A stretch of 43,107 nt of DNA from a virus (taxonomy: Duplodnaviria > Caudoviricetes), in the IMG/VR virus record IMGVR_UViG_3300037439_000026, positions 1 to 43,107 of that record, one strand, 5' to 3'. A program made the position numbers and the translations under genes. Position 1 is the first letter of the stretch. Each line of letters starts with the position of its first letter. Below, piece after piece: positions 1 through 41,233 of this stretch. The notes under the pieces were generated by a model. The model saw nothing but the letters and a program-made list of their open reading frames with translations, was not told the origin of the DNA and did not search any database.

Positions 1-7
1 ATGCAGA

Positions 8-40
8 AGGGGGGTGGAGTTTGCGAGACCCCTCCCCCCT
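8..40. repeat. Imperfect inverted repeat at the genome end
   Basis: agggggg (8-14) pairs with cccccct (34-40), with further internal pairing. Confidence 0.6.
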
Positions 41-61
41 ATCCTTTGAAATCCTGCAAGG

Positions 62-298
62 CTATCTTTGTGCCACCTTTCGATAGAGACCGAGAACATT
101 CTCTTTCACGATCTCATCGATTCCTTGTTCGATTGCCAAGTCTTGATCAGCTTCACTGAGTTCATTGGACGATCTCACGATTCGAGCTAAGAACTCAGTA
201 GTGTTGTAACCTTGTCGCTGATCAAACGCATACCACTCATCAAACTGAGTGAAGGGATCGAACGGATTGTCAACAGTAGTAAGCATGTGTTCAGCCAT
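62..298 (-). CDS. Conserved phage hypothetical protein
   Basis: ORF immediately after the 886-aa gene; GGAGG RBS before ATG at 298 (MAEHMLTTVDNPFDPF). Confidence 0.75.
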   Translation of the reverse strand: MAEHMLTTVDNPFDPFTQFDEWYAFDQRQGYNTTEFLARIVRSSNELSEADQDLAIEQGIDEIVKENVLGLYRKVAQR

Positions 299-300
299 TC

Positions 301-2961
301 TCAACCTCCTTCACTAATGGATGTCTTCAGAGTAGTGAGTGACACACCAAGAGCATCAGCAATCTCAGCCTGGGTGTAGCCAGAGTTGGCCATAGCCTGG
401 GCTCTTTGCTGCTTAGAGGGGCTCATCAGCAGCGTTGTCTTAGGTGTGGCAAGCTGCTTGACTTGTTCTAGGTCTGCGTGATTCAGAATCTGATTCAGTT
501 TGTTGTTACTCAACGCACCAGCTTGAATGGCGGACCATTCATCATTGGTGATCACGATTCGTTGTTTGTGTGCCCCAGTCCTTGTTCGCATCTCTGCTAG
601 GGCCTGTGCCTTCAACTTCTTGACCTCAGAGGGCTCTAGGTCCGGATTGTCACGCCTCTTCTGGGCAAGTACGGCGTTGGCTAGGACCTGGGCTTGTCTC
701 TCTAGGGGGGCGTTCCTGAGAGCCAGGGTCAACTTAGAGTTGAGTGATGCTACTTGCTTGGAGTAGGCGGCCTTTGCTGAAGGCGAATAGGGCGTGGTTC
801 TTGTTGATACTGCCGCCTTCCTTGCTGAGTTAGCCAACCCCTTCAACTGATTCGAATGTTGTGCATACACCTTCTCAATTGGAGTACCAGAAGACAGAGT
901 GAATGCATCATCCGTTTCAGCTAACTTTGTGGATCGTTGAGTCTTTCGTACCACCTTGCCTTGCTTGTTCGTATAGGTGGTTCCGGTTTCTTCATAGACC
1001 CGCTTTCCAGTAGCCTTGTCTACAGCACCCCCTTTTGCTGCGGACCGGGGCTTTCTTTCAGCTACATCTAGGCGGGATGTTGCTCTCGAGATGAGCGTTG
1101 ACGCGCCTGCCCTTGCGCTACCTTGATACTTCTGCTTGAGTTGTGCAATGCCATTGGCTTTGGCTGACTCTTTCCAGTTGAGTCCGTGCTTCTCTGCATC
1201 GATGACTACCATGGAGTGCCGAACTGCTCGAGCAAGCTCGGTCGTGTTTGCTCCACGAATAGTCATGTCGGTGATGAGGTTGGATACATCACCCATCTCG
1301 AAGGCCTTCTGCCTAGCCGTCATCTTCTTCATTCCTGAGTAGCCAGGATAGGCGGCCTGAGGATCGAAGCCCTTCAATCCAGCAAGAGCAGGCGAAGTCT
1401 TGATCTTCTTGTTGTTGTTCGGGATGACCAAGACCGTGTCACCATCGAAGTCTGCACCAGATAGTCGTTGCGCCACCTTGCTATTGATGCCTATGGCGTT
1501 GGGTGGTCGACTACCTAAGAGCTTCTTCGCACCTGGATGGCGATTGTTTACAGTCAACTCAGGGATCTCGAAGATTCCACCATGTGGGAATCGAACCAAC
1601 GCAACCCGTTCTCCATTACGGAAGTTGGGTGCGTAGACTTCGGTTTCCTTGAGCGAATTGACTGGAAGGATGACGTGTGTCTTCTGCCTTGGAATTGCTG
1701 CTGCCTTAAGGTGCACAGCAGCCGAGTCAGCGTCATCGGCGAATGATTCAAGAAGCTTACGCCGAACAGCTGGGTTGGTCAAGCTCATGATCTCATCGAA
1801 CGTTTGCTTGCGACGTTCATAAGTCACGGCCAACTGTTTCTGTGCAAGGGAAGGACTTTGCTTCGATAGCATCTGAGAAGATAGACTTCGAGACCACTTC
1901 TCCCAGTCAGCCTCATCGTTGACGATGTTCATCGCTGATGTGACTTTGTCTTTGCCGTCGCTTCCCTTCTTGACAATCTGCCGAACCACAGCACCAAAGG
2001 GATTGTCGGGGTCATCCTTCAGTTGCTTCATGGCGTCGAGCTTGTTGCCTGTATTCTTCTTGTTAGTGTTGAACACGAGATCTACGCCGTCTGGTAAATC
2101 ATCCTTGTAGATCGCCATGCCTTTCATGTAGTGCGTACCGTCAACAGCGATACGAACCTGAGCATAGCGATTAGCACCAAGCGATAGATCAGTCTTTCCA
2201 GGTCGAACATAGATGACGCCATCCGCATCGGCACCACCATCTTCTGCATAACGAATCCCAATCCTCTTGGAGTTCACATGCATTGGTGGTTGGAGACCAA
2301 GGTACGAGCGACCACCATCATCAGAGAAGTCAGTAACCTGTTTGATGTTGGCTCGGTTCTTGTAGACTTCTGAGTATGACACGTCAGGCTTAGACAGTAC
2401 CTTGATAGTGGTCTGTTGTCCAGTGCCGAGTTGCTCGACCTTGACGTAGTGAACGCCATACCCTTCTTGTTCGAGCATGGCGATTGCCGTGTTCAGTTTT
2501 GTCCTACTGACACCAGTTGGGATGTGATGTTCCACACCAGTACCGACATCAATAAGACCCTTGCTCTCAACCTGACTCTTCAGCATCTGCGCTGTTACTT
2601 GAAGAGAGTCGGCCTTGTCTTTCTGCCCAGGGACCAACAGAGAACGAACTGTTGATTCGTTCATTCCCATGCGTTGCCCAATGGCTATATTGGAGTAACC
2701 TTTGTCCTTGAGTCGCTGAGCCATGGCAATGTTAGACTGGCGTTCTTCAGTCTTCGCAATCGACTTTGCTGCGCGGAGCTGAGTGGTCGTCATCTTCAAG
2801 CCTTCTGCGATTTGAGTCTCGCTAAGACCTTGTTTTTGAAGACTACCAACCATTCCAAGGAAGCTCGAGGGAGACGCGTTGTCACCAGAACCCCATGGGT
2901 AACGACCCGATCTCCTGATGATGCCGTAGTGAGCCAGGAAATCTTCTTCTTTGATTATCAC
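301..2961 (-). CDS. Putative single-chain two-barrel (YonO/RdRP-like) RNA polymerase with N- and C-terminal HTH domains
   Basis: LSGADFDGD metal-binding loop, upstream RFP, YAQVR..HYMKG, GDVSN and HSMVVIDAEKHG match cellular RdRP/YonO motifs in the expected order; three or four HTH-like segments. Confidence 0.8.
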   Translation of the reverse strand: MIIKEEDFLAHYGIIRRSGRYPWGSGDNASPSSFLGMVGSLQKQGLSETQIAEGLKMTTTQLRAAKSIAKTEERQSNIAMAQRLKDKGYSNIAIGQRMGMNESTVRSLLVPGQKDKADSLQVTAQMLKSQVESKGLIDVGTGVEHHIPTGVSRTKLNTAIAMLEQEGYGVHYVKVEQLGTGQQTTIKVLSKPDVSYSEVYKNRANIKQVTDFSDDGGRSYLGLQPPMHVNSKRIGIRYAEDGGADADGVIYVRPGKTDLSLGANRYAQVRIAVDGTHYMKGMAIYKDDLPDGVDLVFNTNKKNTGNKLDAMKQLKDDPDNPFGAVVRQIVKKGSDGKDKVTSAMNIVNDEADWEKWSRSLSSQMLSKQSPSLAQKQLAVTYERRKQTFDEIMSLTNPAVRRKLLESFADDADSAAVHLKAAAIPRQKTHVILPVNSLKETEVYAPNFRNGERVALVRFPHGGIFEIPELTVNNRHPGAKKLLGSRPPNAIGINSKVAQRLSGADFDGDTVLVIPNNNKKIKTSPALAGLKGFDPQAAYPGYSGMKKMTARQKAFEMGDVSNLITDMTIRGANTTELARAVRHSMVVIDAEKHGLNWKESAKANGIAQLKQKYQGSARAGASTLISRATSRLDVAERKPRSAAKGGAVDKATGKRVYEETGTTYTNKQGKVVRKTQRSTKLAETDDAFTLSSGTPIEKVYAQHSNQLKGLANSARKAAVSTRTTPYSPSAKAAYSKQVASLNSKLTLALRNAPLERQAQVLANAVLAQKRRDNPDLEPSEVKKLKAQALAEMRTRTGAHKQRIVITNDEWSAIQAGALSNNKLNQILNHADLEQVKQLATPKTTLLMSPSKQQRAQAMANSGYTQAEIADALGVSLTTLKTSISEGG

Positions 2962-3518
2962 CGCGGCACCTCCTTACTCCACTCAGTGATGTACTTGTCA
3001 AAGGTAATGATTTTGTCCATGATGTGCATCAGATCATCGGGATCTGGGGCATACACCTGGACTTCGTCGTTTTGGTAGATGCGAAGTTCAATGTCGATCT
3101 CGAACGGCCTAAAGCGGTACTCAAGACAAAAGAGCGCCGCGTAGACTTCGAGTTGGTGCATCGACGCTTCGATCATTCCGGTTTTGAGGTCATGCACTCT
3201 CAGCGTATTAGCTCTGAATCCAATAGCATCAGCGGTACCGAAACAGAAATCAGAGTAATACAAAATTTGCTCGGGAGACATTCGAAACCCGATCGCATCG
3301 TTGACATACATATTCAATGTCTTCTTGAGATCTGGAAGTTTCACACCTAGACGAATAGCTCGTTGTGCAAACTCATGAAGCTCAGTCCCCCGTTGAGCAG
3401 CTACGGCTGCATGAAATACGCGAGCGAGCTTATCTTCGTCATAGTTGATCCAGTGGTACTTGCTTGCGCTAAGAAATGCGTGGCCTCCGGCCAGGGTAGA
3501 ATGCGCGTTGAAGTTCAC
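2958..3518 (-). CDS. PD-(D/E)XK (Cas4/RecB-like) exonuclease
   Basis: GTELHE, GTADAI, VHDLKTG and QLEVYA motifs. Confidence 0.8.
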   Translation of the reverse strand: MNFNAHSTLAGGHAFLSASKYHWINYDEDKLARVFHAAVAAQRGTELHEFAQRAIRLGVKLPDLKKTLNMYVNDAIGFRMSPEQILYYSDFCFGTADAIGFRANTLRVHDLKTGMIEASMHQLEVYAALFCLEYRFRPFEIDIELRIYQNDEVQVYAPDPDDLMHIMDKIITFDKYITEWSKEVPR

Positions 3519-3780
3519 GGACCACGTCCTCTTCGTTTTCCGGGTAGACGAAGGCTGCGTATGACATCCGATTCAGCTCATCAATGTAAAACTCTTGGTT
3601 TGGCTGAACTGGTGCGTCTTCGAAACCCTTCACCTCGAGTATCCCCCAACGCTTTTTATACAACAGCGTCAGATCTGGGATGCCCTGCATATAGTCGGTG
3701 TCGTTCTTTAGAATGACACAACCAGGGAACTCCCGCCGAAGTCTCTGGATGAGTAAGGGTTGGTACTTTCGCTCCAGCAA
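3469..3780 (-). CDS. VRR-NUC / Holliday junction resolvase-like nuclease
   Basis: GIPDL..LEVK..QPNQ motif; about 100 aa. Confidence 0.8.
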   Translation of the reverse strand: MLERKYQPLLIQRLRREFPGCVILKNDTDYMQGIPDLTLLYKKRWGILEVKGFEDAPVQPNQEFYIDELNRMSYAAFVYPENEEDVVRELQRAFYPGRRPRIS

Positions 3781-3863
3781 GGTCTCCCCCCTTCGCAGGA
3801 AAACTAAAGAAGCTTGTTTCCACTCCTTCTATTATATCCTGCGATCCTACACTGAGTTAGTAT

Positions 3864-4373
3864 CTAACGGACTATAAAGCGGAATGAGTACTGAGTCGGG
3901 AAGGGCTTCTTCTTATGGGGAGCATGCGAATATGCTGAGTTCAACACATCATTCCACAGCAGTCCGTACTTGACACACACCTCTTTCATCTTGTTGAATG
4001 TCTCGCCAGTCTCGACAATCTCGAATGGACCGACCATATCATGGAAGACACGGTCCTTGAATTGCTCGTGATACTTTCTCACGAACCATCGAGGACGCCA
4101 TACCAGATTGTTTATGTTACAGTTAGTGCGAACACCATCTAGATGCATTGGTGTGTCGTAATGCTCTGCGGGTTTCTCGATGAATACGGACGCCACCAAT
4201 ATAGCAACAGAGCGCTTGTACTGTTTCCCTTCAATTACCAAACCAACGTGAGGCACACCTGTCTGGTTGACTGAGATCGCTAAAATGTTCTGGGTCTTCA
4301 TGTTATAGACTTGCCCGTAGTTGCTTACGAGATGGTCTGGAAAACCCTCAACATCCTCCCACTTTTCTCGCAC
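3864..4373 (-). CDS. NUMOD4-HNH endonuclease-like protein
   Basis: EKWEDVEGFPDHLVSNYGQV (NUMOD4) and HLDGVRTNCNINNLVW (HNH); GTG start at 4373 with a GGAGG RBS. Confidence 0.75.
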   Translation of the reverse strand: MREKWEDVEGFPDHLVSNYGQVYNMKTQNILAISVNQTGVPHVGLVIEGKQYKRSVAILVASVFIEKPAEHYDTPMHLDGVRTNCNINNLVWRPRWFVRKYHEQFKDRVFHDMVGPFEIVETGETFNKMKEVCVKYGLLWNDVLNSAYSHAPHKKKPFPTQYSFRFIVR

Positions 4374-4414
4374 AGAGCCTCCATGTCCGATGTGTCTAAA
4401 TTGTCTCCAGATTG

Positions 4415-4750
4415 ACAAAAACCAAAAATTTTGCTCAAAAAGTTTTTAAAAACACCTACTATTAGTATCTACCTAGATACTTAAAGTCTCTTATTATAAA
4501 ACTTCTTAGGTGTTTTTTTTGTTTTTGACAAGATTAGAGATCAAAAACACGCCTTTTTGCCCGAGTATCATCCCTTTCGTCTCCGGTACGGTAGGATTGG
4601 ACCAACAGTGTCCGCTTTTAGACTGATCCGCCCTAATAATTATCCCTTTCGCACCAGTATGTGAGTTTGCCGAGATGTTGATCTTGATCTTTCGTCCTTT
4701 TTGCCCACGTTAGCTACGTCTCATTATCACGTCGCCCCACATTGTCCCTT
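4415..4750. other. AT-rich non-coding region with inverted repeats, candidate replication origin
   Basis: Long A/T runs; AGTATCTA-cc-TAGATACT (4464-4481); AAAAACACCTA (4448-4458) pairs with TAGGTGTTTTT (4507-4517). Confidence 0.45.
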
Positions 4751-4751
4751 T

Positions 4752-5921
4752 TCATCCACCTATAGACCGAATGAACCTACTTTCGTTGAAGCTCTTCTTA
4801 TCACTCAGTGCCTTCCAAATGGCTTTGTCAATGAGGCTGTTACTCTTGAGCGTGTAGTAGTAGAGCTCCCTGAATTTGGTGTTCATTCGATCAATTCTGC
4901 CGTGTGCTTGATGCCACATCTTGTATGAGTAAGTCATCGAGTAGAAACACATAGCGTCGGTCTCTATGCAATTCCAACCCTCAGAGCCTGCTGCATACTG
5001 AACCAGATATACCCACGAGTCGGTCTTTGGTATCGGCTCGTGTTTGTGCCCGTTCCATTCAGCAACCGTAAATAGGTCACTAAGTTCCCGTAGTTTCTCC
5101 AATTCGAAGTTGTAGTTGTAGAAGACGATCAACTTCTTGTGATTCTCTAACAAGGTTCGCAAGGCACTCAAGCGGGCTGGATCCGTATTGACAACCTTCC
5201 TCATTACAAGGAAGAGTTCCACCACGTCCCGGATTGGTCTTCCCTCGAATACATTCCATCGGTCTCTGACCACCTTATCGAACATCTTCGTGTTGTACGA
5301 AACTTCAACGTCCTTACACTTCCGCACAGTCTCCCGCCGATATGGCATGTGCACCAGCAGGTTGTTGCGCAGTCGAACAAGTTTCCCCACACTTGTGTAG
5401 CGTTCTACTTTTGGAAATTTGGAGAACGTGTTGTAGACCACGTGCTCTCGCTTAAACTCGGTCCTGTTCTTGTAGTACCCATTCGCTACGAAGACGGGGA
5501 TGTAATCCAGCCAGTTGTCCCCGGGGGTAGCACTCAATAGAATCCAGTTGTTCTTCTTTGCGATCTTCAGGAACTTGGTTGTCCAGACCCCGGCCCCGAC
5601 GAGTCGTTGTTCGTCAAAGATGAAGAAGGCTCCGGCCACGTTCTCATACTTGCCGATCTGGTTCCAGGAATCAACAGTAAGTACGCCACCGACAGTGGCA
5701 GCCTTAGCCCCTCCGATACCAAACTTAGCAAATTCGCCTTCCCAATCCAGCGAATCACGCTTCTTGGCGGTGGTGATGACGTAGACATCTTTTGGCGTCT
5801 CCCTTTTCATGTAGTAGGCCACGGCTGTGATTGACTTGCCTACTCCTACACCACCCCAGAGAATTCGTCCGTTAGAGAGCTTCTCAACGGCCTCTAGCTG
5901 GTGGGGTTGTAGCTCGACCAT
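4752..5921 (-). CDS. SF2 (SNF2-like) DNA helicase
   Basis: LQPHQ Q-motif, GVGVGKS Walker A, FDEQ, SATP and QAHGRIDR; GGAGG RBS before ATG at 5921. Confidence 0.88.
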
Positions 5922-5949
5922 TAGCCCTCCTTTCGACAAAACCATAAGC

Positions 5950-6090
5950 CGAGTAGGAGGGAGCCCTAAGACCCCCTCCTACACCCGTGGACTGCTATTC
6001 AGTTGTTATACCTGAGGTTGTAGTCGATGTCGAAGTCGTATTCTTGCTCAGTGGTTAGGGCATGATAGCAACCTCCTAACGTCTCAGGAA
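5950..6090 (-). ncRNA. Candidate structured RNA (hairpin with possible loop-loop pairing)
   Basis: 9-bp stem 5953-5961/5974-5982; its loop is complementary to 6055-6061; additional helices are possible. Confidence 0.3.
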
Positions 6091-6128
6091 GGATGACGAG
6101 AGTCATACCCATCATCCAACCTGAAAAG

Positions 6129-6299
6129 TCAGAGATCGCTTGGTTGTTCTATTTGTCGACCAACGATGTTACCCATTGAGTTAGGGAGCACTTCAACCCA
6201 CTCAAACGTGTTCGTGTCGACGCGATACTGAAACTGCCAGTAGTTTCCCTGTTTATCTTTGTACCAGTCGTTACATTCGTACTTGATTTCGTCAGGCAT
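6129..6299 (-). CDS. Small hypothetical protein, 56 aa (absent from the ORF track)
   Basis: MPDEIKYECNDWYKDKQGNYWQFQY...; start overlaps the upstream stop (ATGCCTGA). Confidence 0.6.
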   Translation of the reverse strand: MPDEIKYECNDWYKDKQGNYWQFQYRVDTNTFEWVEVLPNSMGNIVGRQIEQPSDL

Positions 6300-6768
6300 T
6301 TAGTCCCAACTCTCGATCGAGAACTCCGGTCTCGGACGGAGAGAACCGGAACACTGCGGTCTGCTGCTCACCAGTGTCATAGAGAACTTGGTCCACACTG
6401 GGACGCCCATCGGTGTACGTGCCAAGTTCATCATACTGAGGCGCGCCCGGCATGCTGTTCTTCTTCACCAACCAGGCGTACTGCATGCTCTGAACCAACT
6501 TCCGCTTCGTACCATCTGCGTAGGTCGCCAACATGTACACGCATCCGTCATTTGGCGATAGAAAAAGGTGCGAGACTCGGAACCAGCGGTTGAACTTGCG
6601 GGCCTGCTCCTCGTCCCCCGGAGACGCGGGCGTCTGGGACAGGTCGAACCGAAGCGGGCTGTCCGCAGCGATGACCATGTCGTTCTGGAGGTAGTTGGCG
6701 TCGAACAGGAGGTCTTCGGTTGCCGGGTCCATCTCGTAGTACTTGGTGATGTAACCTTCGGGAATCAT
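6292..6768 (-). CDS. Hypothetical protein
   Basis: AAGGAG RBS; phage-like codon usage. Confidence 0.75.
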   Translation of the reverse strand: MIPEGYITKYYEMDPATEDLLFDANYLQNDMVIAADSPLRFDLSQTPASPGDEEQARKFNRWFRVSHLFLSPNDGCVYMLATYADGTKRKLVQSMQYAWLVKKNSMPGAPQYDELGTYTDGRPSVDQVLYDTGEQQTAVFRFSPSETGVLDRELGLNA

Positions 6769-6849: not shown

Positions 6850-7341
6850 TCAGAGCTCAGTCACGATCATGCTATCTGGATGCTTATAGTGCGAAATTGT
6901 CGTGCATCCAGGCAAGTTACACATTTCCGGAAGACGATGTGCTTCATCAATCTCGACCAAGTGCGCTTTGTTCAGGTTCGGAAACACATGCATGGGTACG
7001 CCCGGTCGATGCTGTAGGGTAGTCGGCTCTGGATCGATGAACGTCCCGTAGTCGTAGTCGTCCTCAGATGGATCGAACGTGTTGAAGAACGCCTTGGCCG
7101 TATAGATCTTGAAGCCGACTCCAGCCTGGAGAACGAAATCTCCTGGGAAAGCCATGGTCTGCTTCTCGTTCAGCGGCCTCATGACACGGACCTTCACATA
7201 CTTCTGCCGAGGTTGTCCAGACCGCGGAGAGGCCTCACGGATGACGCCGTCGCACCACTTCGCAACGTCCTCGAGATTCTCGATCGTGACCTGCACCGCG
7301 TTGACGAAGAAGGGCTTCCTGACGTATCGCCAAACCTTCAT
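6850..7341 (-). CDS. PGDYG-like domain protein (paralogue 1)
   Basis: YVRKPFFVNAVQVT..WCDG..AFPGDFVL..FFNTFD. Confidence 0.65.
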   Translation of the reverse strand: MKVWRYVRKPFFVNAVQVTIENLEDVAKWCDGVIREASPRSGQPRQKYVKVRVMRPLNEKQTMAFPGDFVLQAGVGFKIYTAKAFFNTFDPSEDDYDYGTFIDPEPTTLQHRPGVPMHVFPNLNKAHLVEIDEAHRLPEMCNLPGCTTISHYKHPDSMIVTEL

Positions 7342-8678: not shown

Positions 8679-9173
8679 TTACTCGACAACCTTTCCGGAA
8701 TTCGTTGGGAGGTCATCCATGGCCGCATACTTCAGGTCCAGGTAGTCCTCTTCGATGATTACGTAAATGGCCTTCAGGTAGGCCTTGATGCCCGTCTTTC
8801 CGTTGACCTCCCAGTGATACGGGCTGATCGAGAGGTCTACCATCACCCTGTCGACCTGATCGAGGATCTCACACGAGTCTTCGTCAAGTTCGGTTCGTCT
8901 GCGGGTGGTCTCGCCGATCATGATGATCCGCGGAGGCCGCACCTTGAAAGCCACGGCAACCTCGAGGAGTGGCTGGTCGGGTTCGCCTGCTTCTCGGCTC
9001 TTCAGACCCTTGACGTTCCAACCGTCCGCGAGCAGCTTCGCGGCCGTGTCGTCATCCAGAAAGACGCAGAAGTTCCGATTGCCCTCCCGATTAAAGTTGT
9101 CTTCCTTGCCAGAGAAGTTCACGAAGACAATTTTCGCGTCTTCGATGGTGATGACGCCGTCGTTACGAGCCAT
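8679..9173 (-). CDS. Putative single-stranded DNA-binding protein
   Basis: FVNFSGKE..NREGNRNF and GIKAYLK pattern typical of this phage SSB family; lies in the replication module. Confidence 0.7.
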   Translation of the reverse strand: MARNDGVITIEDAKIVFVNFSGKEDNFNREGNRNFCVFLDDDTAAKLLADGWNVKGLKSREAGEPDQPLLEVAVAFKVRPPRIIMIGETTRRRTELDEDSCEILDQVDRVMVDLSISPYHWEVNGKTGIKAYLKAIYVIIEEDYLDLKYAAMDDLPTNSGKVVE

Positions 9174-9456
9174 CGCTGATCTTCCTAGCAGCTTCGTAGT
9201 GCGTGTTGAACTCAACATCGGCCATGGTCACGAACCCGTTGTCCTTGGACAGGATCAGGTAGTCGCTAAGTTTGGCTTTCTTGACTCCGTCCAGGGTCGG
9301 GAACATGACGTGTTCGACAGTACTGCTGCCATCGGGCTGCCGTTCAGTCTTCCGAACCACCCGACCATGACACCACGTTGCGGCGAATTCGGCACTGTCT
9401 TCGGTGATCTGAAGAGCCTTGACGCTAGAGCCCTTCGGACGATACGTCTTGTACAT
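9163..9456 (-). CDS. PGDYG-like domain protein (paralogue 2)
   Basis: YRPKGSSVKALQIT..WCHG..PTLDG..DYLI..EFNTHYE. Confidence 0.65.
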   Translation of the reverse strand: MYKTYRPKGSSVKALQITEDSAEFAATWCHGRVVRKTERQPDGSSTVEHVMFPTLDGVKKAKLSDYLILSKDNGFVTMADVEFNTHYEAARKISDGS

Positions 9457-9688
9457 TTTCCACCTCATCTTTCTGTTTCATCATTCGACCGAGCTCCACA
9501 AAGTTTCTGTTCAGAGCCTCTGTATCCCCGACCAGATCCTTCATCATTCGACCGTGCTCCACCAAGTTTCTGTTCAGAGCCTCGGTAACCCTGACCAGAT
9601 CCTTGATAATCCGGTTTGTGTCCTTCTTGATGGTGTGATCCAGATTTTGAAGCGCACGAGTTAGTGCACGAATATCAAGTTCTGCCAT
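9425..9688 (-). CDS. Coiled-coil protein with a 21-aa tandem repeat
   Basis: AGGAG RBS before MAELDIR; repeated ALNRN(L/F)VE(H/L)GRMMK. Confidence 0.65.
   Translation of the reverse strand: MAELDIRALTRALQNLDHTIKKDTNRIIKDLVRVTEALNRNLVEHGRMMKDLVGDTEALNRNFVELGRMMKQKDEVENVQDVSSEGL
9477..9613. repeat. 63-bp tandem repeat, about 2.2 copies
   Basis: 9477-9539 and 9540-9602 are nearly identical; a partial third copy follows. Confidence 0.9.
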
Positions 9689-9698
9689 CTTAACACTC

Positions 9699-9980
9699 CT
9701 AGATGGGCTCGTACTTGGTTTCGAACTCATGTTGGCGCATGACGCGGAAACGTCCCCTTGCGGTTGGCGACATCTCCTTGACGACGTAATCGCCTTCTCC
9801 AGCCCGCTGGACGCCGGAAAGAGTGGGGATGTTCAGCGCAGAGAACTTCTTGGTGTTGTCGATCGGATCGATCTCCTCAACCTCAATACCACCGCACCAC
9901 AGCGCAGCACGATGTACGGATTGGGGAGTAACCTGGATTGCTTCGACCGAGATAGGGATTAGCCGATACTGCCTGGGCAC
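9699..9980 (-). CDS. PGDYG-like domain protein (paralogue 3)
   Basis: GTG start; YRLIPISVEAIQVT..WCGG..IPTLSG..GEGDYVV..EFETKYE. Confidence 0.65.
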   Translation of the reverse strand: MPRQYRLIPISVEAIQVTPQSVHRAALWCGGIEVEEIDPIDNTKKFSALNIPTLSGVQRAGEGDYVVKEMSPTARGRFRVMRQHEFETKYEPI

Positions 9981-9990
9981 GTGTCCCCCC

Positions 9991-10311
9991 TCAGCTAACG
10001 ACAGCATCAGGAATGCAGACGTTGTCGAACTTCTTGTAAGCGTCGATGTACGTCTCGCGCTGATTCCCATTGTAGGTGACCTCGTAGTACATCCCGTCGG
10101 GAAGGGTAGTACTGAGCAGGGCCTTCCAGTTCTGGAGGGTCTTGGCGAACCAGACGACGTAGACGTCGTAGTTGGGTCGCTCATCCGTCTTCTCCAGGCG
10201 AGTTTCGATGTATGCGATGACGGAACCTACCGCTTCGGCCAGAAGATCGGCCTGAACACCTACTCCTGGTCGGAAGGCATCACCATGTACGTCGATGAGT
10301 TCTTCCATCAT
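9991..10311 (-). CDS. DUF6275-like phage protein
   Basis: VYVVWFAKTLQNWKALLSTTLPDGMYYEVTYNG..YIDAYKK signature. Confidence 0.75.
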   Translation of the reverse strand: MMEELIDVHGDAFRPGVGVQADLLAEAVGSVIAYIETRLEKTDERPNYDVYVVWFAKTLQNWKALLSTTLPDGMYYEVTYNGNQRETYIDAYKKFDNVCIPDAVVS

Positions 10312-10628
10312 CCTTCCTCCAACGGTGCGAGCTCAGCGATGGACTTGTGGGTCCACATAGACGCCGTTTCCAACTCGGTGAAGGCCACCGACTTGGCGCG
10401 ACCTGGAGGAAGAACACGGTCGAGCATGTCTGCGAACTCCATGAACTGAACCCGCAGGTAGGCGTGTCGCGGAGCGGTAGCGTTCGGACCCTCGATGGTT
10501 CCCTTGTGGAATCCGAAACGATGCTTGATCTCCAGCACACCAAGCGTTGTGTTGTCCTCTTCGATGTCGAAGTCTTCGTACCGCCCAAATTGACTCTCGG
10601 GCGGACCGTTCTCGGTCAGATGACTCAT
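10308..10628 (-). CDS. Acb2/Tad1-like helical hairpin protein (candidate immune-signal sponge)
   Basis: RFGFH...PPGRAKSVAFTELETASMWTHKSIA resembles the family's RExSLAxTxLEEAxMWxxxxIA helix. Confidence 0.6.
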   Translation of the reverse strand: MSHLTENGPPESQFGRYEDFDIEEDNTTLGVLEIKHRFGFHKGTIEGPNATAPRHAYLRVQFMEFADMLDRVLPPGRAKSVAFTELETASMWTHKSIAELAPLEEG

Positions 10629-10635: not shown

Positions 10636-13600
10636 CTATCCGATGAATGTCACAAGAGGACCGAAGTAATCAATGGTCTCTCTTGCGTCGTCGACCAGCT
10701 TATCGAAGAACGACATGTCCACAGCTGCCATACCGAGCTCCTTGGCCATCTCCGCCTCGAGCCAGAAATAACCCTTCGTCCCAGAGACTGCGTACTGCTT
10801 GTCGTCCTTCACCCGATAGAGGTTACCCCCTCCGTAACCCTCCTTCACCGGAACAAACAGACCCGTCCTTCCTACGAAGTGCATGCCAGTGTACTTAGGC
10901 ATCTGCACATCAGTGAAGTCCAGATACATGGTGCCAACGGTGACCGACTTCGTCTCACAGAGATCCTCGAACGTAATCGGATTGTTCCGATCGAACAAAG
11001 TCTTGAAGACGTATGGATGCTGGAACTGCGCACCCACTGCGGTCCACTTCGGTGTGTTGCAGTCATCCTGACGCGCTATGTACACCGCGTCATTCACGAG
11101 ACAGAACTGGTCGTACGTAGCCTCGTGTTCGAATGTGTAGCCGTACTTCTCGCCGAACCCCTTGACGAAGTCGATGATCTCCGGCGTTGCGTCGGGAATC
11201 TTGACCGAGTCTGTCTTGATGTGGGCGACCGTGAAGCCTTTCTCCTGAATCGCGTGCTTCAGATCGATCATGAACAAAGCGCCGCGCTTGGCAACGATAT
11301 TGTCTACGTTTCGAACGTCCCGGAATGGGTTGTCGAACTTGGCAGAGGTAAGTCCGTAGACGATGTTGATGACGATCTTGAGAGCGTAGGATAGAGCCTC
11401 AGAATCGTCAGGATTGGCCAGATGCTTGGACAGTCGACCACCAAGAAGAGTTTTGGCCACGTCATAGTCTCGATGTTTAATCGCCAGACGCGCTTGCTTG
11501 AGTTCTCCGAATCGTCTAGTATACTCCTCCCCAAAGAGATTGAGACATTCGATACTCGTCGGATGCATCGAGGCCACATCAAGAAGAGCAACGTTCTGGT
11601 ACATGCCCGGTTCAGCGTAGACGTATCCACCTTCTCCGGTAACCTCACTTCGGTAAGAGCTCTTACCTCGATCGTAGGAGTATCCGGGGAACTCCTTACT
11701 GAGGTCTGTATAGACGAAGCTTCGTTGAGGGTTGCGATCGCCCTTAAATACGATCTGAGCAGTATGCTTAGCAGTAGTGTCATTGACACTGAGGCCACTA
11801 AGATCAGCCAGAATTTGCCTGGCAACGAAATCACCCTTTCTGGATTCGAAGGTAGCTTCGGTCGCGACGACGTCGTTCACGCAGTACTCAACGACCCGCG
11901 AAATGTCCTTCTCATCGACCGGCTGATCCCACGGAAGATCCAACTCCATGTGGTGCAGACCGAGCTCGATCTCAAACTTCTTCAGACCCTGCTTCTTCGA
12001 CGAGAAATCATAGATGTCCGTGTAGGAAATCTTGTACGCCTCACCGAACAGTGCCGAAGCGGCCCCAGAAATGATCTTCTGAGACAGCCGGTACAACAAC
12101 TCGTTACTGTAGCCCATGTACCTAGCGTACATGATATGGTTGTCATACCGACGATTGTTGAAGCCCACGAGCTTCATCCGGAAGAGCTTCTCGACCTCTT
12201 GGGGTGTCGGGTTGATCATGCGAACGACGTTGGGGTCACCCTGGTACTTCCAACACACCACGAGCAGGTTCGGGTAGACCTCGATGTCAAAGAAGACAAG
12301 ACGATCGTCGTCTGGCTTCTCGGCCTCCAAGACCGGTTCCACGCTTTCTTCAGCAGATTGGAATCGCATCTTCATCACGGTCTTCAGGCACACGAGTGGT
12401 TGATTCGTGCTGCTGTTGGCGAAGGCCAGGATCTTCGGTCGCAGATCGATGACGTCGTATCTCATCCCCGAGAGATATGCCTCCTCGAGGATCTTGTGGA
12501 TGAAGTCGATGCTCGGCTTTGTTCCTGGGTGAATCTCCTTCCGCAGATTCCGAGCGATTAGTTCCCGAAGTCCCCTCTCGCTTTTGACTGTGTCCACCTG
12601 CAACATCTTCTTCTCCTTGAGCGGCAGACCGCTGTTTATAGTTGCGATGGGGACGTTATTGCACTTGGTGAGCCTCCGACGAAGAGATGCGTCACCGGTG
12701 AATACTTTGACCTCAATTCCATCAGAGTAGGCACGGGCAAGCTGGTTGGTATCTCCGTCGTAGATATAGTGCAGATGAACGCCACTTTCACTCTTGCTAA
12801 GCTCACCGTATGTCGCGGGCCAAGAGCTAGCCGCCTCGAGATTCTTCTCCAGAGATTTATATCCATCATCGTCCTTGAGATCGAAGTCGATCACAATATG
12901 TTGTTCTGGGACGGCGACGTAATGCAACTGTGAGGTATCGATCTCGGCCAAAGTGGTCTTGACCATAGCCCACCGCTTCTGCGGAGTCCCATCTTCTTTT
13001 GCGTACTGAGCCGCTAGATCAGCGTACTCGAGGTCAAATATCGACTTAGTTTCATCCATCACCAGCGAGAAGATCTTTCCGTCATCGCTGATTGGAGTCT
13101 TGAATGCCGACGCAGTGAATCCCGAGTAGTAACTTCTCATAGTGGCTCCATCAACTGTCAGTCTATCGTGGAACTCTTCGAAATAGTTCCTTAGCTCCTC
13201 TCGAACCTTATACTGAGGAAGAGGCTTTTCGATCCCAGTGTCTGTGCAGAATTCTTTGTACAGACTGTACGCCTGCTTAAGAGTTGCCCCGTTCTGGTGC
13301 TTGAAGATGTCAAAGTGTGCTTCGATGAAGTTGAAGAATATATCCGTTTGGAGCATCATCTCCAACGGGCGGTAGGAATTGTAGTAATTCTTCCCCATAG
13401 CCCGATAGACCTCAAGGCAGTGATGCGCAACAGCACCAAGCTCGAAGTCAATCCTCGACATCAACGTATGGTAGTGATTAGGCGCGAATCGTTCGCCCGT
13501 CGGGTGCACATCAATAAGACGTCGAATAATACCCGACTTGGCGTCCGAGATCTTGACCGGCTTGTTAGTACCCATGAATAAGAACGCATTGATCCGAGCC

Positions 13601-16483: not shown

Positions 16484-16501
16484 GGACCTTTCCTTTCTAA
16501 T

Positions 16502-17149: not shown

Positions 17150-17169
17150 ATTTCCCTCAATCCCTGGAG

Positions 17170-17204
17170 AAAAACTAACAGACCACGTTCGGTCCGCTAG
17201 TTTT
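17170..17204 (-). terminator. Hairpin/terminator after the 17210-17458 gene
   Basis: Minus strand AAAACTAGCGGACC-gaacgt-GGTCTGTTAGTTTTT. Confidence 0.65.
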
Positions 17205-17209
17205 GATTT

Positions 17210-17458: not shown

Positions 17459-17474
17459 TGGGGTTCCTTTCGTA

Positions 17475-17506
17475 GGGTCTCATTACATGGCGTGTTTTAC
17501 TTGCGA
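17475..17506 (-). promoter_or_regulatory. Conserved phage promoter motif, copy 1
   Basis: TCGCA-agtaaaa-CACG-cca-TGTAAT-GAGACCC. Confidence 0.75.
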
Positions 17507-17664
17507 GTCAGGTATTCGCTCACTCGGACCAACGCCATTGTTTTCCCAACGCATACCCAATGCGTTTCATCGACGGAGTTGCTTTCCAACCATTCTTTGG
17601 TGTCTTCGGGCGTGCCATTGAAAATGGGCCGCATGTTGCTAGTAAGTACGGCATCGAAATACAA
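17497..17664 (-). CDS. Small hypothetical protein, 55 aa (absent from the ORF track)
   Basis: Perfect AGAAAGGAGGTG RBS and TTG start; MYFDAVLTSNMRPIFNGTPEDTKEWLE. Confidence 0.7.
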   Translation of the reverse strand: MYFDAVLTSNMRPIFNGTPEDTKEWLESNSVDETHWVCVGKTMALVRVSEYLTRK

Positions 17665-18692: not shown

Positions 18693-18724
18693 GGGTCTCA
18701 CTATAGGCCATGCGTTTCTTGCGA
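18693..18724 (-). promoter_or_regulatory. Conserved phage promoter motif, copy 2
   Basis: TCGCA-agaaacg-CATG-gcc-TATAGT-GAGACCC. Confidence 0.75.
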
Positions 18725-20830: not shown

Positions 20831-20862
20831 GGGTCTCACTATAGCCCCTGTAATTTCTGCGA
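20831..20862 (-). promoter_or_regulatory. Conserved phage promoter motif, copy 3
   Basis: TCGCA-gaaatta-CAGG-ggc-TATAGT-GAGACCC. Confidence 0.75.
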
Positions 20863-21183: not shown

Positions 21184-21215
21184 GGGTCTCACTATAAGCC
21201 ACGTAAACCGTGCGA
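21184..21215 (-). promoter_or_regulatory. Conserved phage promoter motif, copy 4
   Basis: TCGCA-cggttta-CGTG-gct-TATAGT-GAGACCC. Confidence 0.75.
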
Positions 21216-21860: not shown

Positions 21861-21892
21861 GGGTCTCATTATAGCCCATGCTAAATATGCGA
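21861..21892 (-). promoter_or_regulatory. Conserved phage promoter motif, copy 5
   Basis: TCGCA-tatttag-CATG-ggc-TATAAT-GAGACCC. Confidence 0.75.
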
Positions 21893-35108: not shown

Positions 35109-37205
35109 TCAGGCAGCCGGACGCGTGAACGGCCACTCGTCGTTGGCGTTGGTGGCAAAGTAGTACCCGGTGTCCGGAACAGCGTGGACAGTCAGGGTGG
35201 CACCCGGGTCCAGAGCGGTCTGAGCGCCAGCCGACAGGACACTGTCGTCGGAAGCGTCCTGGTACACGACACCTTCCACGGTTGGAATAGTGACCACGCC
35301 AGTGCCCGAGACGAAGGTCGGCTTGGTCGGAACAGCCAGTTCGTTGGCCACGTCCGTCTTCTTCAGAATCAGCGCCGACTTGATCTTCACCAGTGCACCC
35401 GAGAGACGAGTCTCGTACAGGTACTTATACTGGTTGTAATCGATATCAAAATCATCGAAGAAGTTCACCTCGCCACCACGATCAGTGCCGATGTTGTAGT
35501 CCGTCAGGTTGACGATGATGCCGAAGAGATCGGTCTCGTTCTCCATCGGCTCGACCTCGACGATCTCCTTCAGCCTCATGGCCGTAGCGAGCTCGCCCAC
35601 GTTGGCCCACAGACGACGCTGCATCCCGTCCTTGGTCAGAAGCATCTCGGTGAGAACCTGCGCCGTAGTGTAGAGCGTCGGGCGACCAGTGCCCTTGTAG
35701 AAGCGAAGAGCCCGAAGAACATCCTCGACGATGGTGTTGTAGTTCGGGGTCGCGCCGATGTTGATGTTGACGGTGGTCGCGTAGAGCTCGTGCTCATTCA
35801 GGATCGAACGGATACCGCTGCCGTCCGAAGCCGCGGCGGGGTCCTTGATCTTGTCGTCGTCGTCGACTGCGCGACCGTCGCCGATCAGGATGGCCCGACC
35901 GAGCTCCTCCTTGAGCATCATCTCCATTTCCATCTTGAGCCACGCGACGACGTCGAAGTCGGTGATGTCCAGGATGTCGTCCCGGTCCAGCTTCTGCTTC
36001 TTGTAGATCGTAGTCGGGCCGGTGATCCGCTTCGAGACCCTGAAGAACTCCTCCTTCTTCAGGTTTCCCTTGACGTAACCCTTGGCGCGAGCATCATCGA
36101 AGGTCAGGTCCGCCACGAGCGACTTCACGCGCGAGAATGGGGTGTGACGTGTGCCATTGAGAACGCCAGCCACCCACTCAGTCTGCCGCTTATCAAACTC
36201 CGGCCGATCGGTGAGAGACTTGGCGTCCGGGAACAGAACATCGATGTTCTCGATGCCGTGCTTCAGAGCGTAGCCCTTCACAGCATCCTTCAGCGAGCCG
36301 CAGCTCACGGCGTCGGCGACGATGCCCTTCACGTCCTCGTGGGACAGCGAGTGCGTGTCGCTCTTGCCCTTGTCGTTGCCCGTCTCGAAGACGTTGTGGC
36401 GCATTTCGCCAGTTCCTTCCTTGTCGGTGTTGCTGTCGTCCTTGTCGTCCTTGTTGGTTCCAGACTGCTTAGCGGAACCACCCGTCTGAGTATCCAGAGC
36501 AGCACCGATCATGTAATGCACGACGTTCTTCTGCTCCTCTGTCAGGGTGTCGTAGACCTCCTGAACGGTGGCATGCTCGAGATCGCTATACATGAGATCG
36601 GTCGATGATCCGTCGTCGAGGGTGCGTGTCGAATCGTTGGATGTGGTTCGAGTCGCAACGACTTTTCCATCGACGAGATCCGTTGTGGTGGATGACGACT
36701 TCGTTGCGTAGGTTTTGACCGCGTGCTCCAGCTTTAGGCCGGTGTAGATGATCGCGGTATCGTCGGAAACCGTCACATCGTCGGGATCGTCACTGTGTTG
36801 AATCGCCACGAAGTCGATCTTGGCGCCTGGATTTGCACCAGAAAGAACCAGACTGACTTCGCGAATGACGCCATGGAGAACAGCCTTGGCGCCCTTCACG
36901 GCCTTCTCGACTAGACCATTTGCCCAAATGGACATGGAGTCGATGTCGTCGTGCTCTACCAGAGTCTTGGCGTTCTTACCCTGCTTCGTGTCGTTGAAGT
37001 ATCCATCGGCACGCATGCCATCATCGACAGCAGTCAGGAGCACATGTCCAAGAACGTTGTCAGGACTGTTGTGACCGTGTTGCCACAACAATGGGACCTT
37101 ACTGCCATCCATGTGCTTGAAGGCTTCGGGCGTGATGGTCCGACCGTCGGAGCACCGGATGCCGGCCTTGGTGGCGTAGCCGCTAAAATCAGGCTTCGCT
37201 CCCAT
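35109..37205 (-). CDS. Fused prohead protease-scaffold-major capsid protein (HK97 type)
   Basis: FSGYA, VPLLWQH, SMSIWA and IREVSLVLSGANPGA (HK97 protease); capsid domain; start at MGAKPDF. Confidence 0.9.
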   Translation of the reverse strand: MGAKPDFSGYATKAGIRCSDGRTITPEAFKHMDGSKVPLLWQHGHNSPDNVLGHVLLTAVDDGMRADGYFNDTKQGKNAKTLVEHDDIDSMSIWANGLVEKAVKGAKAVLHGVIREVSLVLSGANPGAKIDFVAIQHSDDPDDVTVSDDTAIIYTGLKLEHAVKTYATKSSSTTTDLVDGKVVATRTTSNDSTRTLDDGSSTDLMYSDLEHATVQEVYDTLTEEQKNVVHYMIGAALDTQTGGSAKQSGTNKDDKDDSNTDKEGTGEMRHNVFETGNDKGKSDTHSLSHEDVKGIVADAVSCGSLKDAVKGYALKHGIENIDVLFPDAKSLTDRPEFDKRQTEWVAGVLNGTRHTPFSRVKSLVADLTFDDARAKGYVKGNLKKEEFFRVSKRITGPTTIYKKQKLDRDDILDITDFDVVAWLKMEMEMMLKEELGRAILIGDGRAVDDDDKIKDPAAASDGSGIRSILNEHELYATTVNINIGATPNYNTIVEDVLRALRFYKGTGRPTLYTTAQVLTEMLLTKDGMQRRLWANVGELATAMRLKEIVEVEPMENETDLFGIIVNLTDYNIGTDRGGEVNFFDDFDIDYNQYKYLYETRLSGALVKIKSALILKKTDVANELAVPTKPTFVSGTGVVTIPTVEGVVYQDASDDSVLSAGAQTALDPGATLTVHAVPDTGYYFATNANDEWPFTRPAA

Positions 37206-38433
37206 TTTGACCGTCTCCCTTCCTTGTCGTTTGGGGTGTTGAAGTTGGCTCCGACGGAGCCGGCATGTTGCTGTTCCTGAGTTCATCAGCCTTCGGATCA
37301 CTCGAAGGTCGAAGACCAATCACGGAACGAATCTCGTTTGCCGACAGAATCTCGTTGCGAGTAAACTTGTCAGCAATCTCAGCGATGTCTTCGATCGGAA
37401 CCAACTTGAATGGGTTCCTAAAGTAAGCAATTGACTGACGCTGCGACCTTGCGGTCTTGGTCAAGAACGCACGCTTCATCGCTTCGGTGATCGCCGCAAG
37501 AATAGGCTCGATCGTTCGGTTGCTGTAGTTCAGCATGGCCTTCTCATCAGCCGTGCCGTTCATCACTTCTTCCGTTAGACCAAGCTGCGCATAGAGCATA
37601 CCAACTAGGTACTTGACTCGCTCCATGAGATTGTTCTCGGCAGGCCTGTTGAGCTGAGTGATCTTCTCGGCCCCGTCAGTATAGGCAATGCCGTACTGAC
37701 TGCCCTTGAGCTGGAACTCGATGTCCTTACGACGCTGCTCAGCTTGTTGTCGCCGAGTCTCAGTCTTGATGACGTATGGTAGCTGGATGATCATGTCCAG
37801 CTTCCCTGACGCTGATTGCTCATCAACCGAATCCAGTCGATTGAGTGTGCGAATCAAACGTTGAAGAGTCGAGTTTGGCTCATTCATCACAGCGTAGAGC
37901 GGATTCTCTACTATTGCAACGAACTTCTTCTCGAGAGTGATCTCTTCTCGTCGGCCCCGATCCTCGTTGTACAGACTCACTCGAACATGGCGCGGATGCC
38001 AACCAACTATCGTGCCGACACGAAGCGTCTTGATGTCGAAGCTTCCTGAGACCGAAGGGTTGATCGTAGTATCCACAGGAACAATCGCGGCTACACCCTC
38101 GCCAAATAGGGTCATGGCTATGTCCTGCCGGAAGTGCCGAGCAGCCTGATCTATGTTCGCCTCAACAGTAAGACAGTTATTAAGACCGCTATCAACATCT
38201 TCGACGTATCGATCTTTATCGTCTAGTCTTACGTGTCGAACCTCGATACCAGAAACATCGATGCTCAATCGCGTGTAGATCGAAGAGATGATGGAGCGTT
38301 CGTTTGTGATCGAAAGGCGTGTTCGATCTGGACGTCCACCGTAACTGGTTCCATAGTCATAAAGTCTACGATTTTCGTCCCAGTTAACAAACGCGTTCCA
38401 GGCGTGTTTCAATCGATCAGTAATAGCTCCCAC
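37189..38433 (-). CDS. Portal protein
   Basis: Between terminase and capsid; ILSANEIRSVIGL HK97-portal C-terminal motif. Confidence 0.9.
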   Translation of the reverse strand: MGAITDRLKHAWNAFVNWDENRRLYDYGTSYGGRPDRTRLSITNERSIISSIYTRLSIDVSGIEVRHVRLDDKDRYVEDVDSGLNNCLTVEANIDQAARHFRQDIAMTLFGEGVAAIVPVDTTINPSVSGSFDIKTLRVGTIVGWHPRHVRVSLYNEDRGRREEITLEKKFVAIVENPLYAVMNEPNSTLQRLIRTLNRLDSVDEQSASGKLDMIIQLPYVIKTETRRQQAEQRRKDIEFQLKGSQYGIAYTDGAEKITQLNRPAENNLMERVKYLVGMLYAQLGLTEEVMNGTADEKAMLNYSNRTIEPILAAITEAMKRAFLTKTARSQRQSIAYFRNPFKLVPIEDIAEIADKFTRNEILSANEIRSVIGLRPSSDPKADELRNSNMPAPSEPTSTPQTTRKGDGQNGSEA

Positions 38434-40505: not shown

Positions 40506-40886
40506 CTACTTCTTCGCACTCTTAAGTGCGTTCGCGATGGCTTGAGCCGACTGCTGACGAGCGACAGTAGCCGCTTGTTCCTTCCCGATACCGAGAAGTG
40601 TAGAGGCGATCCACTGCCGAGTTTTCTCTGACGCCGACTTCGGACGAAGGCTCTCGTACTGACGCTCGAGATTCATCCTATCGATTGCAGTTCTGAGATC
40701 CTTGTTAGAGGCAACGTCAGTGGTTCTGTTTGTTCGGACTCGACCAACGACCGCCTTTGCCCGTTTGGCGTCGCCATGGGTTGGGCCCGTCGGTTGCCGC
40801 TTACGAACCCCCCATTTCATGCCTTTAGTACCGTAGTGAGCAAGAACTCTCTCTACGGCGAGACGGGAAGCGTCGGATCGATCCAT
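40506..40886 (-). CDS. HYGxKGMKWG-motif protein
   Basis: VLAHYGTKGMKWGVRK; AGGGAGG RBS before MDRSD. Confidence 0.75.
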   Translation of the reverse strand: MDRSDASRLAVERVLAHYGTKGMKWGVRKRQPTGPTHGDAKRAKAVVGRVRTNRTTDVASNKDLRTAIDRMNLERQYESLRPKSASEKTRQWIASTLLGIGKEQAATVARQQSAQAIANALKSAKK

Positions 40887-41233
40887 GCGGTCCCCTCCCT
40901 GTAAACGTTGAGACGCCATTCGAGCTCTTCGATCTGCTTCTTCATTGCCTCTTGCGCATAAGCAGTTGACGGCGGATCGAACAACATGCGTACCCGAAGG
41001 TGCATGTAGGTCTTCACGGCGTTGAGATTCGGATCGGTTCCGAGGAAGGTGTCCCACGTGGCCGAGGAATCCTCGATCTCGAACCCAGCTTCCGGTCCGA
41101 TGCCCAGTTGACTAAGCGTCGAGAAGACCGAGTTGATGTGCGTCATGATGTCGAGGTCGTACGCTGTGTACTCCTCTTCGACCCCAAGGATCTTCTTTGT
41201 ACTGGTGAGGATACTTGTCGTCACGTAGGACAC
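40853..41233 (-). CDS. Conserved protein, possible head-tail adaptor
   Basis: SILTSTKKILG..HINSVFSTLSQLG..FDPP..ELEWRL; the start may be GTG at 41224. Confidence 0.65.
   Translation of the reverse strand: MSYVTTSILTSTKKILGVEEEYTAYDLDIMTHINSVFSTLSQLGIGPEAGFEIEDSSATWDTFLGTDPNLNAVKTYMHLRVRMLFDPPSTAYAQEAMKKQIEELEWRLNVYREGTAWIDPTLPVSP

Follow-up and report, generated by a model that had tools for sequence, protein, structure and literature searches.

The window analysed here, positions 1 to 43,107 of IMG/VR record IMGVR_UViG_3300037439_000026 (43,107 nucleotides, nt), belongs to a tailed double-stranded DNA (dsDNA) phage, a siphovirus with all identified genes on one strand. Near one end it carries an open reading frame (ORF) at 301-2961 (minus strand), with a GTG start and no internal stop, that encodes a protein of 886 amino acids (aa) and ~97 kDa. 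Judging from its predicted fold and invariant residues, this protein is almost certainly a two-barrel polymerase. The gene follows two nuclease genes in an operon, and the features of the locus are as follows.

3469..3780, minus strand: VRR-Nuc endonuclease gene, first of the operon (Pfam/PHROG matches, collinearity with Streptomyces phage HotFries)
2958..3518, minus strand: Cas4/RecB-like exonuclease gene, overlapping the polymerase start (PHROG 3953; same order in phages HotFries, Gordon and Kerry)
301..2961, minus strand: gene for the predicted single-chain two-barrel RNA polymerase, PHROG 4291 (ORF, profile match, invariant residues, predicted fold)
2647..2862, minus strand: two N-terminal helix-turn-helix (HTH)-like modules, about residues 34-105 (Pfam HTH_38 at 82-105, PHROG HTH at 69-107, model helices)
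2347..2610, minus strand: predicted winged-helix domain, residues 118-205 (VIA-align; weak Pfam GntR/HTH_36)
1912..2286, minus strand: predicted first (beta-like) barrel, about residues 226-350, boundaries approximate, with D247, R270 and K280 (invariant residues; inside the range aligned to QDE-1, RDR2 and gp62)
1417..1689, minus strand: predicted catalytic double-psi beta-barrel (DPBB), residues 425-515, with R457, P459 and D504/D506/D508 (fold match, invariant residues)
1186..1317, minus strand: conserved helix pair past the catalytic barrel, MGxxSN ... HSMVVIDAEKH (order as in YonO, IGEYSN ... IDFAK)
310..420, minus strand: C-terminal HTH, residues 848-884 (Pfam HTH_23, HTH_24 and Sigma70_r4_2, model helices)
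62..304, minus strand: conserved 80-aa gene, overlapping the polymerase stop, its product possibly an accessory factor (PHROG 4303; also the last gene in HotFries, Gordon, Kerry, P162 and 1706)

The polymerase, its predicted fold and its family

An initial annotation, made from the sequence alone, had recognized polymerase motifs in this ORF, and all of them are present at the coordinates it gave. DGVIYV starts at D247 (2221-2223); in YAQVR..HYMKG, R270 lies at 2152-2154 and K280-G281 at 2119-2124; RFP comprises residues 457-459 (1585-1593) and GADFDGD residues 502-508 (1438-1458); MGDVSN spans residues 556-561, and ELARAVRHSMVVIDAEKHG ends at G593. Eight residues (four Asp, two Arg, Lys and Pro) are described as common to all two-barrel polymerases in the accessible part of PMC2919709, and the full set, assigned by motif and spacing and not by residue-level structural alignment, is found here: D247, R270, K280, R457, P459, D504, D506 and D508. 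All are invariant in 149/149 aligned relatives, among which 32 rows at 43-60% identity carry the main weight; K280 is partly selected, being in one of the six patterns used for the contig scan.

The order of these residues equals that in YonO of Bacillus phage SPbeta and in the RNA-dependent RNA polymerase (RdRP) QDE-1, as the initial annotation had proposed, and the two downstream motifs also come in the order seen in YonO. Spacings are 23/10/177/2/45/2/2 here, 17/5/221/2/41/2/2 in YonO and 29/5/219/2/43/2/2 in QDE-1, which are similar apart from a shorter link between the barrels (177 residues versus 221 and 219). In a protein of the same composition, DxDGD is expected by chance ~0.01 times and DFDGD 0.00016 times. 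It occurs in all 58 near-full-length relatives from viral contigs (71 loci found, 13 shorter ones excluded), as DFDGD in 57 and as DADGD in one, which bears out the conservation that the initial annotation had counted on. The motif is likewise present in 121/121 stored proteins (query included), which are close relatives, 74-95% identical in the core. Its presence in 74/75 GTDB loci was excluded as evidence, since that scan selected on the motif.

These counts bear on the plain HTH annotation, under which the protein would regulate by binding DNA and its polymerase part would be an inactive relic. HTH families alone pass the Pfam cut-offs (residues 82-105 and 855-883), and 25 of the 40 relatives listed carry such a label, yet the catalytic residues never vary among the 149 aligned proteins and the core is better conserved than the HTH ends; we consider a relic very improbable.

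The AlphaFold2 model has a mean pLDDT (predicted local distance difference test) of 82.3 and a pTM (predicted template modelling score) of 0.67. The DPBB on which the initial annotation depended is predicted at residues 425-515, which match DPBB domains with Z 10-10.5 and a root-mean-square deviation (rmsd) of ~2 (a designed DPBB at Z 10.5, rmsd 1.9, 77 aligned) and beta'/Rpb1 chains with Z 10-11.7. The second barrel is predicted in the same chain, packed against the first: a single alignment of 355-365 residues (model 223/227-716/720) to QDE-1 and to gp62 of Thermus phage P74-26 (Z 11.5-12.3, rmsd 4.4-4.5) covers both barrels, not the second barrel alone. VIA-align, run against 48,161 chains, gave its highest ranks to RDR2 (Z 15.4, rmsd 4.6, 363 aligned), QDE-1 (Z 12.3, rmsd 4.4, 365 aligned; model 227-716 versus QDE-1 683-1185), Pol I (Z 11.7, rmsd 3.5, 159 aligned) and gp62 (Z 11.5, rmsd 4.5, 355 aligned), and also returned the virion RNA polymerase of phage phi14:2 (Z 8.4, rmsd 4.8, 374 aligned). 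The best Foldseek matches, a comparison that the initial annotation had suggested, were QDE-1 (E 2.5e-9), P74-26 gp62 (E 5.3e-7) and RDR2 (E 2.1e-6); 21 matches had E <=0.001, the 18 listed being QDE-1, RDR2 and P74-26 gp62, and cellular largest subunits were weaker than this threshold. Residue conservation and predicted fold thus support the two-barrel reading. Residues 118-205 gave middling matches to a TFIIIC TauB chain (Z 8.0, rmsd 2.7, 86 aligned) and the T138 extended winged helix (Z 7.9). In the ESM Atlas the protein falls in the family's own clusters, and residues 225-630 lead to an RdRP-labelled viral cluster at 0.88, which we take as a lead only.

Some results pull the other way. Whole-chain Foldseek TM-scores (template modelling scores) are low (0.25-0.35, rmsd 12-22), and when solved structures were searched by sequence, the protein and its 149-row profile both retrieved HTH and helical-repeat proteins and no polymerase. 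A profile compared with the single YonO sequence left the core unaligned (hhalign probability 2.5%), so that only short motifs correspond. The model cannot separate a DNA from an RNA template, and the best-matching folds are eukaryotic RdRPs.

Nevertheless, D504, D506 and D508 very probably bind Mg, and the enzyme would polymerize nucleoside triphosphates on DNA. DNA dependence is argued from the dsDNA genome, the DNA-binding ends of the protein and YonO, which available passages of PMC5467207 describe as strictly DNA-dependent. A different polymerase job, such as RNA-templated synthesis (the PHROG label), replication priming, or synthesis of a signal or anti-defence RNA, would be in keeping with the top RdRP folds, with an operon containing two nucleases and with PMC2919709, whose accessible part leaves the role open. 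The several DNA-binding HTH modules and the phage's own primase-polymerase speak against such a job, as does the DNA dependence of YonO, gp62/gp64, gp96 and phi14:2 gp66 (from cited passages and the Protein Data Bank title of 6vr4), and we regard it as quite improbable.

The named systems differ from this protein in several respects. QDE-1 and RDR2 are its best structural matches across both barrels, whereas identity is 11-14%, the Pfam RdRP match (PF05183, residues 495-596; E 0.003 with the core alone) reaches 15.1-16.7 bits against a gathering cut-off of 23.8, and the enzyme here is encoded by a dsDNA phage and has DNA-binding ends. YonO (839 aa) is likewise a single chain of similar size, but no significant alignment was obtained, the HTH/winged-helix modules and an N-terminal tag are found on the phage protein here, and YonO is a demonstrated late-gene enzyme of a temperate phage; SPbeta hosts are absent from the organism tallies of a tblastn search at E 10. 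The Thermus phage enzymes P74-26 gp62/P23-45 gp64 (non-virion) and gp96 (virion) and crAss-like phi14:2 gp66 are also single-chain two-barrel phage RNA polymerases (RNAPs), with Z 11.5, 8.7 and 8.4. At 11-17% identity they are distant; gp96 is fused to a tape measure protein and the phi14:2 chain has 2166 aa, in contrast to the single gene here, whose 886-aa product has an HTH at either end and a candidate tag for head loading.

The initial annotation could not say whether such a protein had been described; the family in fact has been. The profile match to PHROG 4291, 'RNA-dependent RNA polymerase', extends over residues 3-884 of the 886 (1347 bits). The accessible part of PMC2919709 lists a phage-1706 family of YonO-like proteins, with SPbeta and 1706 proteins as separate families, and that of bioRxiv 10.1101/842583 reports an HHpred match to RdRP with a probability of 95.68%, together with DxDGD and an HTH at either end, and treats the protein as a signature of the BI/AM/AU/AW/CC/DJ/EL-Lactococcus supercluster. 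The gene is therefore not new in kind: it belongs to a family for which predictions were published in 2010 and 2021. It shares with this family (1706 orf75, the 'HTH domain protein' of actinophage clusters BI, AM, AU, AW, CC, DJ and EL, and Faecalibacterium phage Oengus) the end-of-genome operon, terminal HTHs, DxDGD, and its position between the VRR-Nuc and exonuclease genes on one side and, at the end of the genome, a small conserved gene on the other. It differs as a new sequence in an uncultured branch; the available passages of the family's papers draw no link to a repeat element or an N-terminal tag.

Relatives occur in 250 of 50,697 phage records, in at least 8000 clusters at 90% identity and in 308 matching stretches of GTDB genomes. 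The 40 relatives listed are labelled HTH/DNA-binding (25, as the initial annotation had predicted), RdRP (6), hypothetical (8) and transcription factor (1). Identity is 64.5% to HotFries gp56 and 39% to Lactococcus phage 1706 orf75, and in a quick tree, used for placement only, the protein groups with uncultured sequences; HotFries is one of the nearest cultured rows, under an unresolved fork. No bench study of the family was found in the literature covered, which included few subscription papers, and the accessible parts of PMC5513430, PMC7302621, PMC13313380, PMC5559632 and PMC5883640 contain nothing on this polymerase. In a relative of 95 kb, a second frame of 360 aa (G035:C1:16753-17496, minus strand) matches only the N-terminal HTH region (residues 48-208, 37%) and is possibly a stand-alone copy of the DNA-binding module. 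Another genome, G038, carries two intact polymerase genes; ~29-30 kb upstream of a polymerase gene in it (L345, G038:C5), 15 repeats resembling clustered regularly interspaced short palindromic repeats, with a 66-68 nt period, stand beside a probable prophage.

A repeated promoter-like element

Five copies of a 32-nt repeat are spread over 17475-21892 of the window. On the coding strand the element reads TCGCA-N14-TATART-GAGACC, and a ribosome-binding site and start codon follow ~18-30 nt on; a consensus of fixed spacing, TCGCA-N7-C-N6-TATART-GA, precedes five early genes. The copies are located as follows.

21861..21892, minus strand: element copy 1, start codon at 21844
21184..21215, minus strand: element copy 2, start codon at 21168
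20831..20862, minus strand: element copy 3, start codon at 20814 of a 59-aa ORF
18693..18724, minus strand: element copy 4, start codon near 18668
17475..17506, minus strand: element copy 5, ahead of the gene run leading to the primase-polymerase
3825..3855, minus strand: degenerate copy before the VRR-Nuc/exonuclease/polymerase operon, found by a relaxed rule only

With a position weight matrix trained on HotFries, Gordon and Kerry, scores were 32.6-42.0 bits for the five copies, 1.0 for the next site in the window and at most 7.6 in ten shuffles. In the same scan of the window, no copy was found ahead of the structural genes, which occupy 21 kb. The top gapped word in HotFries, Gordon and Kerry is this same element, and a variant occurs in Lactococcus phages P162 and 1706, so that it is common to phages of Streptomyces, Arthrobacter and Gordonia and, as a variant, Lactococcus. 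A scan of 16/64 parts of IMG/VR yielded 181 loci with 213 distinct sites. Position 13, which the query left free, is C in ~100% of these sites, and position 14 is A in 91%. Nearly all the sites lack a -35 box and an extended -10: the best -35 match is <=3/6 in 205/213, and TGn occurs in 2/213. A likeness of the element to the T7 promoter was treated as chance.

The element and the polymerase occur together. Of 43 contigs of >=41 kb that carry the exact element, 37 were searched, and each of these has the polymerase gene. A copy with C13 lies 860-1160 nt upstream of the polymerase start in 29/42 viral-contig loci, a count made without a control and including two near-identical loci. In GTDB genomes the element was found 500-1500 nt upstream of the polymerase gene in 17/75 loci, compared with 2 on the reverse strand and 0-5 in shuffles. 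Variants of it were visible by eye in 4/4 regions from genomes with contigs >100 kb. In one locus (L347, G040:C2), a terminator-like hairpin is present six times, in some cases with a variant element containing TATTAT after it, which gives terminator-plus-promoter cassettes between small genes.

A 32-50 bp intergenic repeat of actinophage clusters AU and DJ resembles this element, since in the available passages it stands before small mid-genome genes and, in DJ, has the same TATAAT core. It was read there as a recombination boundary (bioRxiv 10.1101/2020.01.10.891226). By contrast, the element here is shown to stand without -35/TGn, with C13 invariant and upstream of the polymerase operon; it was itself found in one AU and one DJ genome.

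The N-terminal tag and the genome organization

The polymerase begins with a short tag that also heads proteins of the head module. The features concerned are as follows.

2890..2937, minus strand: N-terminal LxHYG...WG tag of the polymerase, residues 9-24, candidate head-loading/protease signal (conservation; common to DUF7211 proteins)
40509..41057, minus strand: DUF7211 head-module protein with the same LxHYG tag at 40830-40844 (Pfam DUF7211, E 2.7e-11), its true start probably near 40886
35109..37319, minus strand: protease-capsid fusion, its N-terminal part repeating hydrophobic-x-His, candidate tag-processing enzyme (Pfam Peptidase_S78 and capsid)

H11 and G13 are kept in 139/139 aligned rows with a residue there and the tag in 73/75 GTDB loci, while residues 9-31 have pLDDT <50 in the model. 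LxH[YH]G heads DUF7211 head-module proteins in the window (1), HotFries (1), Gordon (5), Kerry (4) and P162 (2). In residues 39-354 of the protease-capsid fusion, a region picked post hoc, 11/14 His are preceded at -2 by a hydrophobic residue (against a background of 0.22; p 1.3e-5). In phage 1706, orf75 and the tag-variant orf7 are both called 'structural protein' in GenBank, a label that presumably rests on virion mass spectrometry.

The window is collinear with HotFries. Its genes include terminase, portal, protease-capsid fusion, two major tail genes, tape measure and holin genes and small mid-genome genes, followed by primase-polymerase, helicase, HNH, VRR-Nuc, exonuclease, polymerase and the 80-aa gene. 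The window is probably a complete cos-to-cos genome, because both ends match the ends of cultured relatives, minus a ~9-nt cos overhang; CheckV gives 73%. The conserved ends (1-45 and 43070-43107) hold two elements: immediately ahead of cos, a G-run/C-run inverted repeat that ends in AT, and past cos an A-run/CCGGGG/T-run element, both kept from actinophages to Lactococcus and gut phages. The genome-end element also contains TCGCA and the reverse complement of GAGACCCC. The end elements are probably a cos/terminase signal. The G-run/C-run repeat was considered as a late promoter on account of its TCGCA and rejected: in 34 ends its TCGC is 47-62% conserved per position, and the pattern selects for runs.

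Other observations in the window, all on the minus strand where a gene is concerned, include a 1247-aa primase/helicase-DNA polymerase fusion (10636-14379; PHROG 4210, DUF5906), which is a core gene of the lineage, and an Acb2/Tad1 hairpin domain protein (10308-10628; Pfam PF24729, E 1.2e-11), a candidate sponge for cyclic-nucleotide defence signals. Three small paralogues (6850-7341, 9163-9468 and 9699-10184) match PHROG 4159 (nucleotide pyrophosphohydrolase) and PHROG 419 and are possibly MazG-like counter-defence proteins. The two major tail protein genes (32224-33012 and 33589-34473) match PHROG 2645, and two DUF6353 genes (15581-16483 and 18726-19508) match PHROG 2152. An AT-rich non-coding segment with A/T runs between the helicase and HNH genes (4420-4560) is a possible replication origin, and two tandem 63-nt copies, 92% identical, lie at 9477-9602 inside ORF 9425-9730. 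No RNA holder is listed in 300-3000.

A candidate transcription system and its alternatives

We consider it rather probable that the polymerase recognizes the repeated element, and a slight balance of probability favours its packaging in the virion and early action. Joined together, these suggest a virion-carried, DNA-dependent RNAP that reads TCGCA-N7-C-N6-TATART-GA, a model that we hold tentatively, at somewhat less than even chances. The HTH modules of the enzyme would read the element; the LxHYG tag would load the enzyme into the head, and early transcription would start after injection. Transcription from the element would then cover the small early genes, the replication genes and the polymerase's own operon, and since this operon carries the element, newly made enzyme would amplify its own expression before the tag repackages it. 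We prefer a virion-carried RNAP because it is the simplest account of enzyme, element and tag together. Precedents in the available passages of bioRxiv 2022.12.01.518664 are a virion RNAP of P23-45 with an AT-rich motif and promoter motifs proposed for the enzymes of this phage.

A number of observations count against this model. The operon copy at 3825-3855 is degenerate and was missed by the matrix, and the relaxed rule that found it also matched once inside a gene. The element holds a near-perfect sigma70 -10 box, TATAAT (partly set by the search pattern), and available passages of PMC9671010 and PMC10868162 read the AU/DJ repeat as a sigma70 -10 motif. The co-occurrence in 37/37 contigs is at the level of the lineage, where any core gene would score equally. 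Among probable prophages, 0/16 loci on contigs >100 kb have the element 500-1500 nt upstream, and the strict pattern was found in 1/5 genomes with such contigs. In phage 1706, orf62 and orf71 lack the tag and carry the same 'structural protein' label. On induction, a prophage would have no virion enzyme to draw on, and the model leaves the transcription of the 21 kb of structural genes, which lack the element, unexplained. Finally, YonO, the sole characterized bacteriophage relative of similar size, transcribes late genes, according to the passages available.

The main rival is a late role in the manner of YonO. Early promoters of the TATART type would be recognized by the sigmaA holoenzyme of the host, with or without help from a phage activator, leading to expression of the gene; its product would then transcribe the structural genes, starting from a promoter located at the cos junction or spanning it. 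The -10 box and the lack of an element upstream of the structural genes agree with this, as do the conserved G-run/C-run element just before cos and the existence of temperate members (the 308 GTDB stretches; Oengus with a tyrosine integrase). YonO itself, in the passages available, transcribes late genes as one operon, and its promoter and factor requirement are left open there. A host promoter would, on the other hand, have to be reconciled with the near absence of -35/TGn, the fixed spacing and the invariant C13, with the same element across host genera and phyla, and with the coding strand of 16500-22500 and of 1-6500, where no sigma70 consensus was found; the tag common to head proteins would also be unaccounted for. 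Actinobacterial promoters often function without a -35 box, and for this reason its absence, and that of TGn, does not exclude host use. We judge late transcription by this enzyme unlikely.

A non-virion enzyme would be a smaller departure from the preferred model: host RNAP would weakly transcribe the operon from the degenerate TATAAT site, and the new enzyme would take over the consensus elements. This would be compatible with prophage induction. It also fits that in the window, HotFries, Gordon and Kerry alike, no copy is more degenerate than that of the operon, and the non-virion RNAPs of the gp62/gp64 type are close folds. Retention of the tag in 73/75 GTDB loci and at 139/139 aligned N-termini, together with the 'structural protein' label of 1706 orf75, argues against it, and we regard a purely intracellular enzyme as improbable.

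A fuller version of the virion-carried model would have a sigma-independent RNAP whose tag is cut by the capsid protease and which, once injected, uses one fixed-geometry promoter across phages of two bacterial phyla; we consider this version doubtful at present. It would amount, with no greater assurance, to a self-contained transcription system like that of T7 but built on a cellular active site. A candidate enzyme, a candidate promoter of sharp consensus and cultured phages (HotFries, Gordon, Kerry and 1706) are now available together, and promoter start by a minimal two-barrel polymerase without sigma thus becomes directly testable. If true, the finding may offer an orthogonal expression system for actinobacteria and lactococci.

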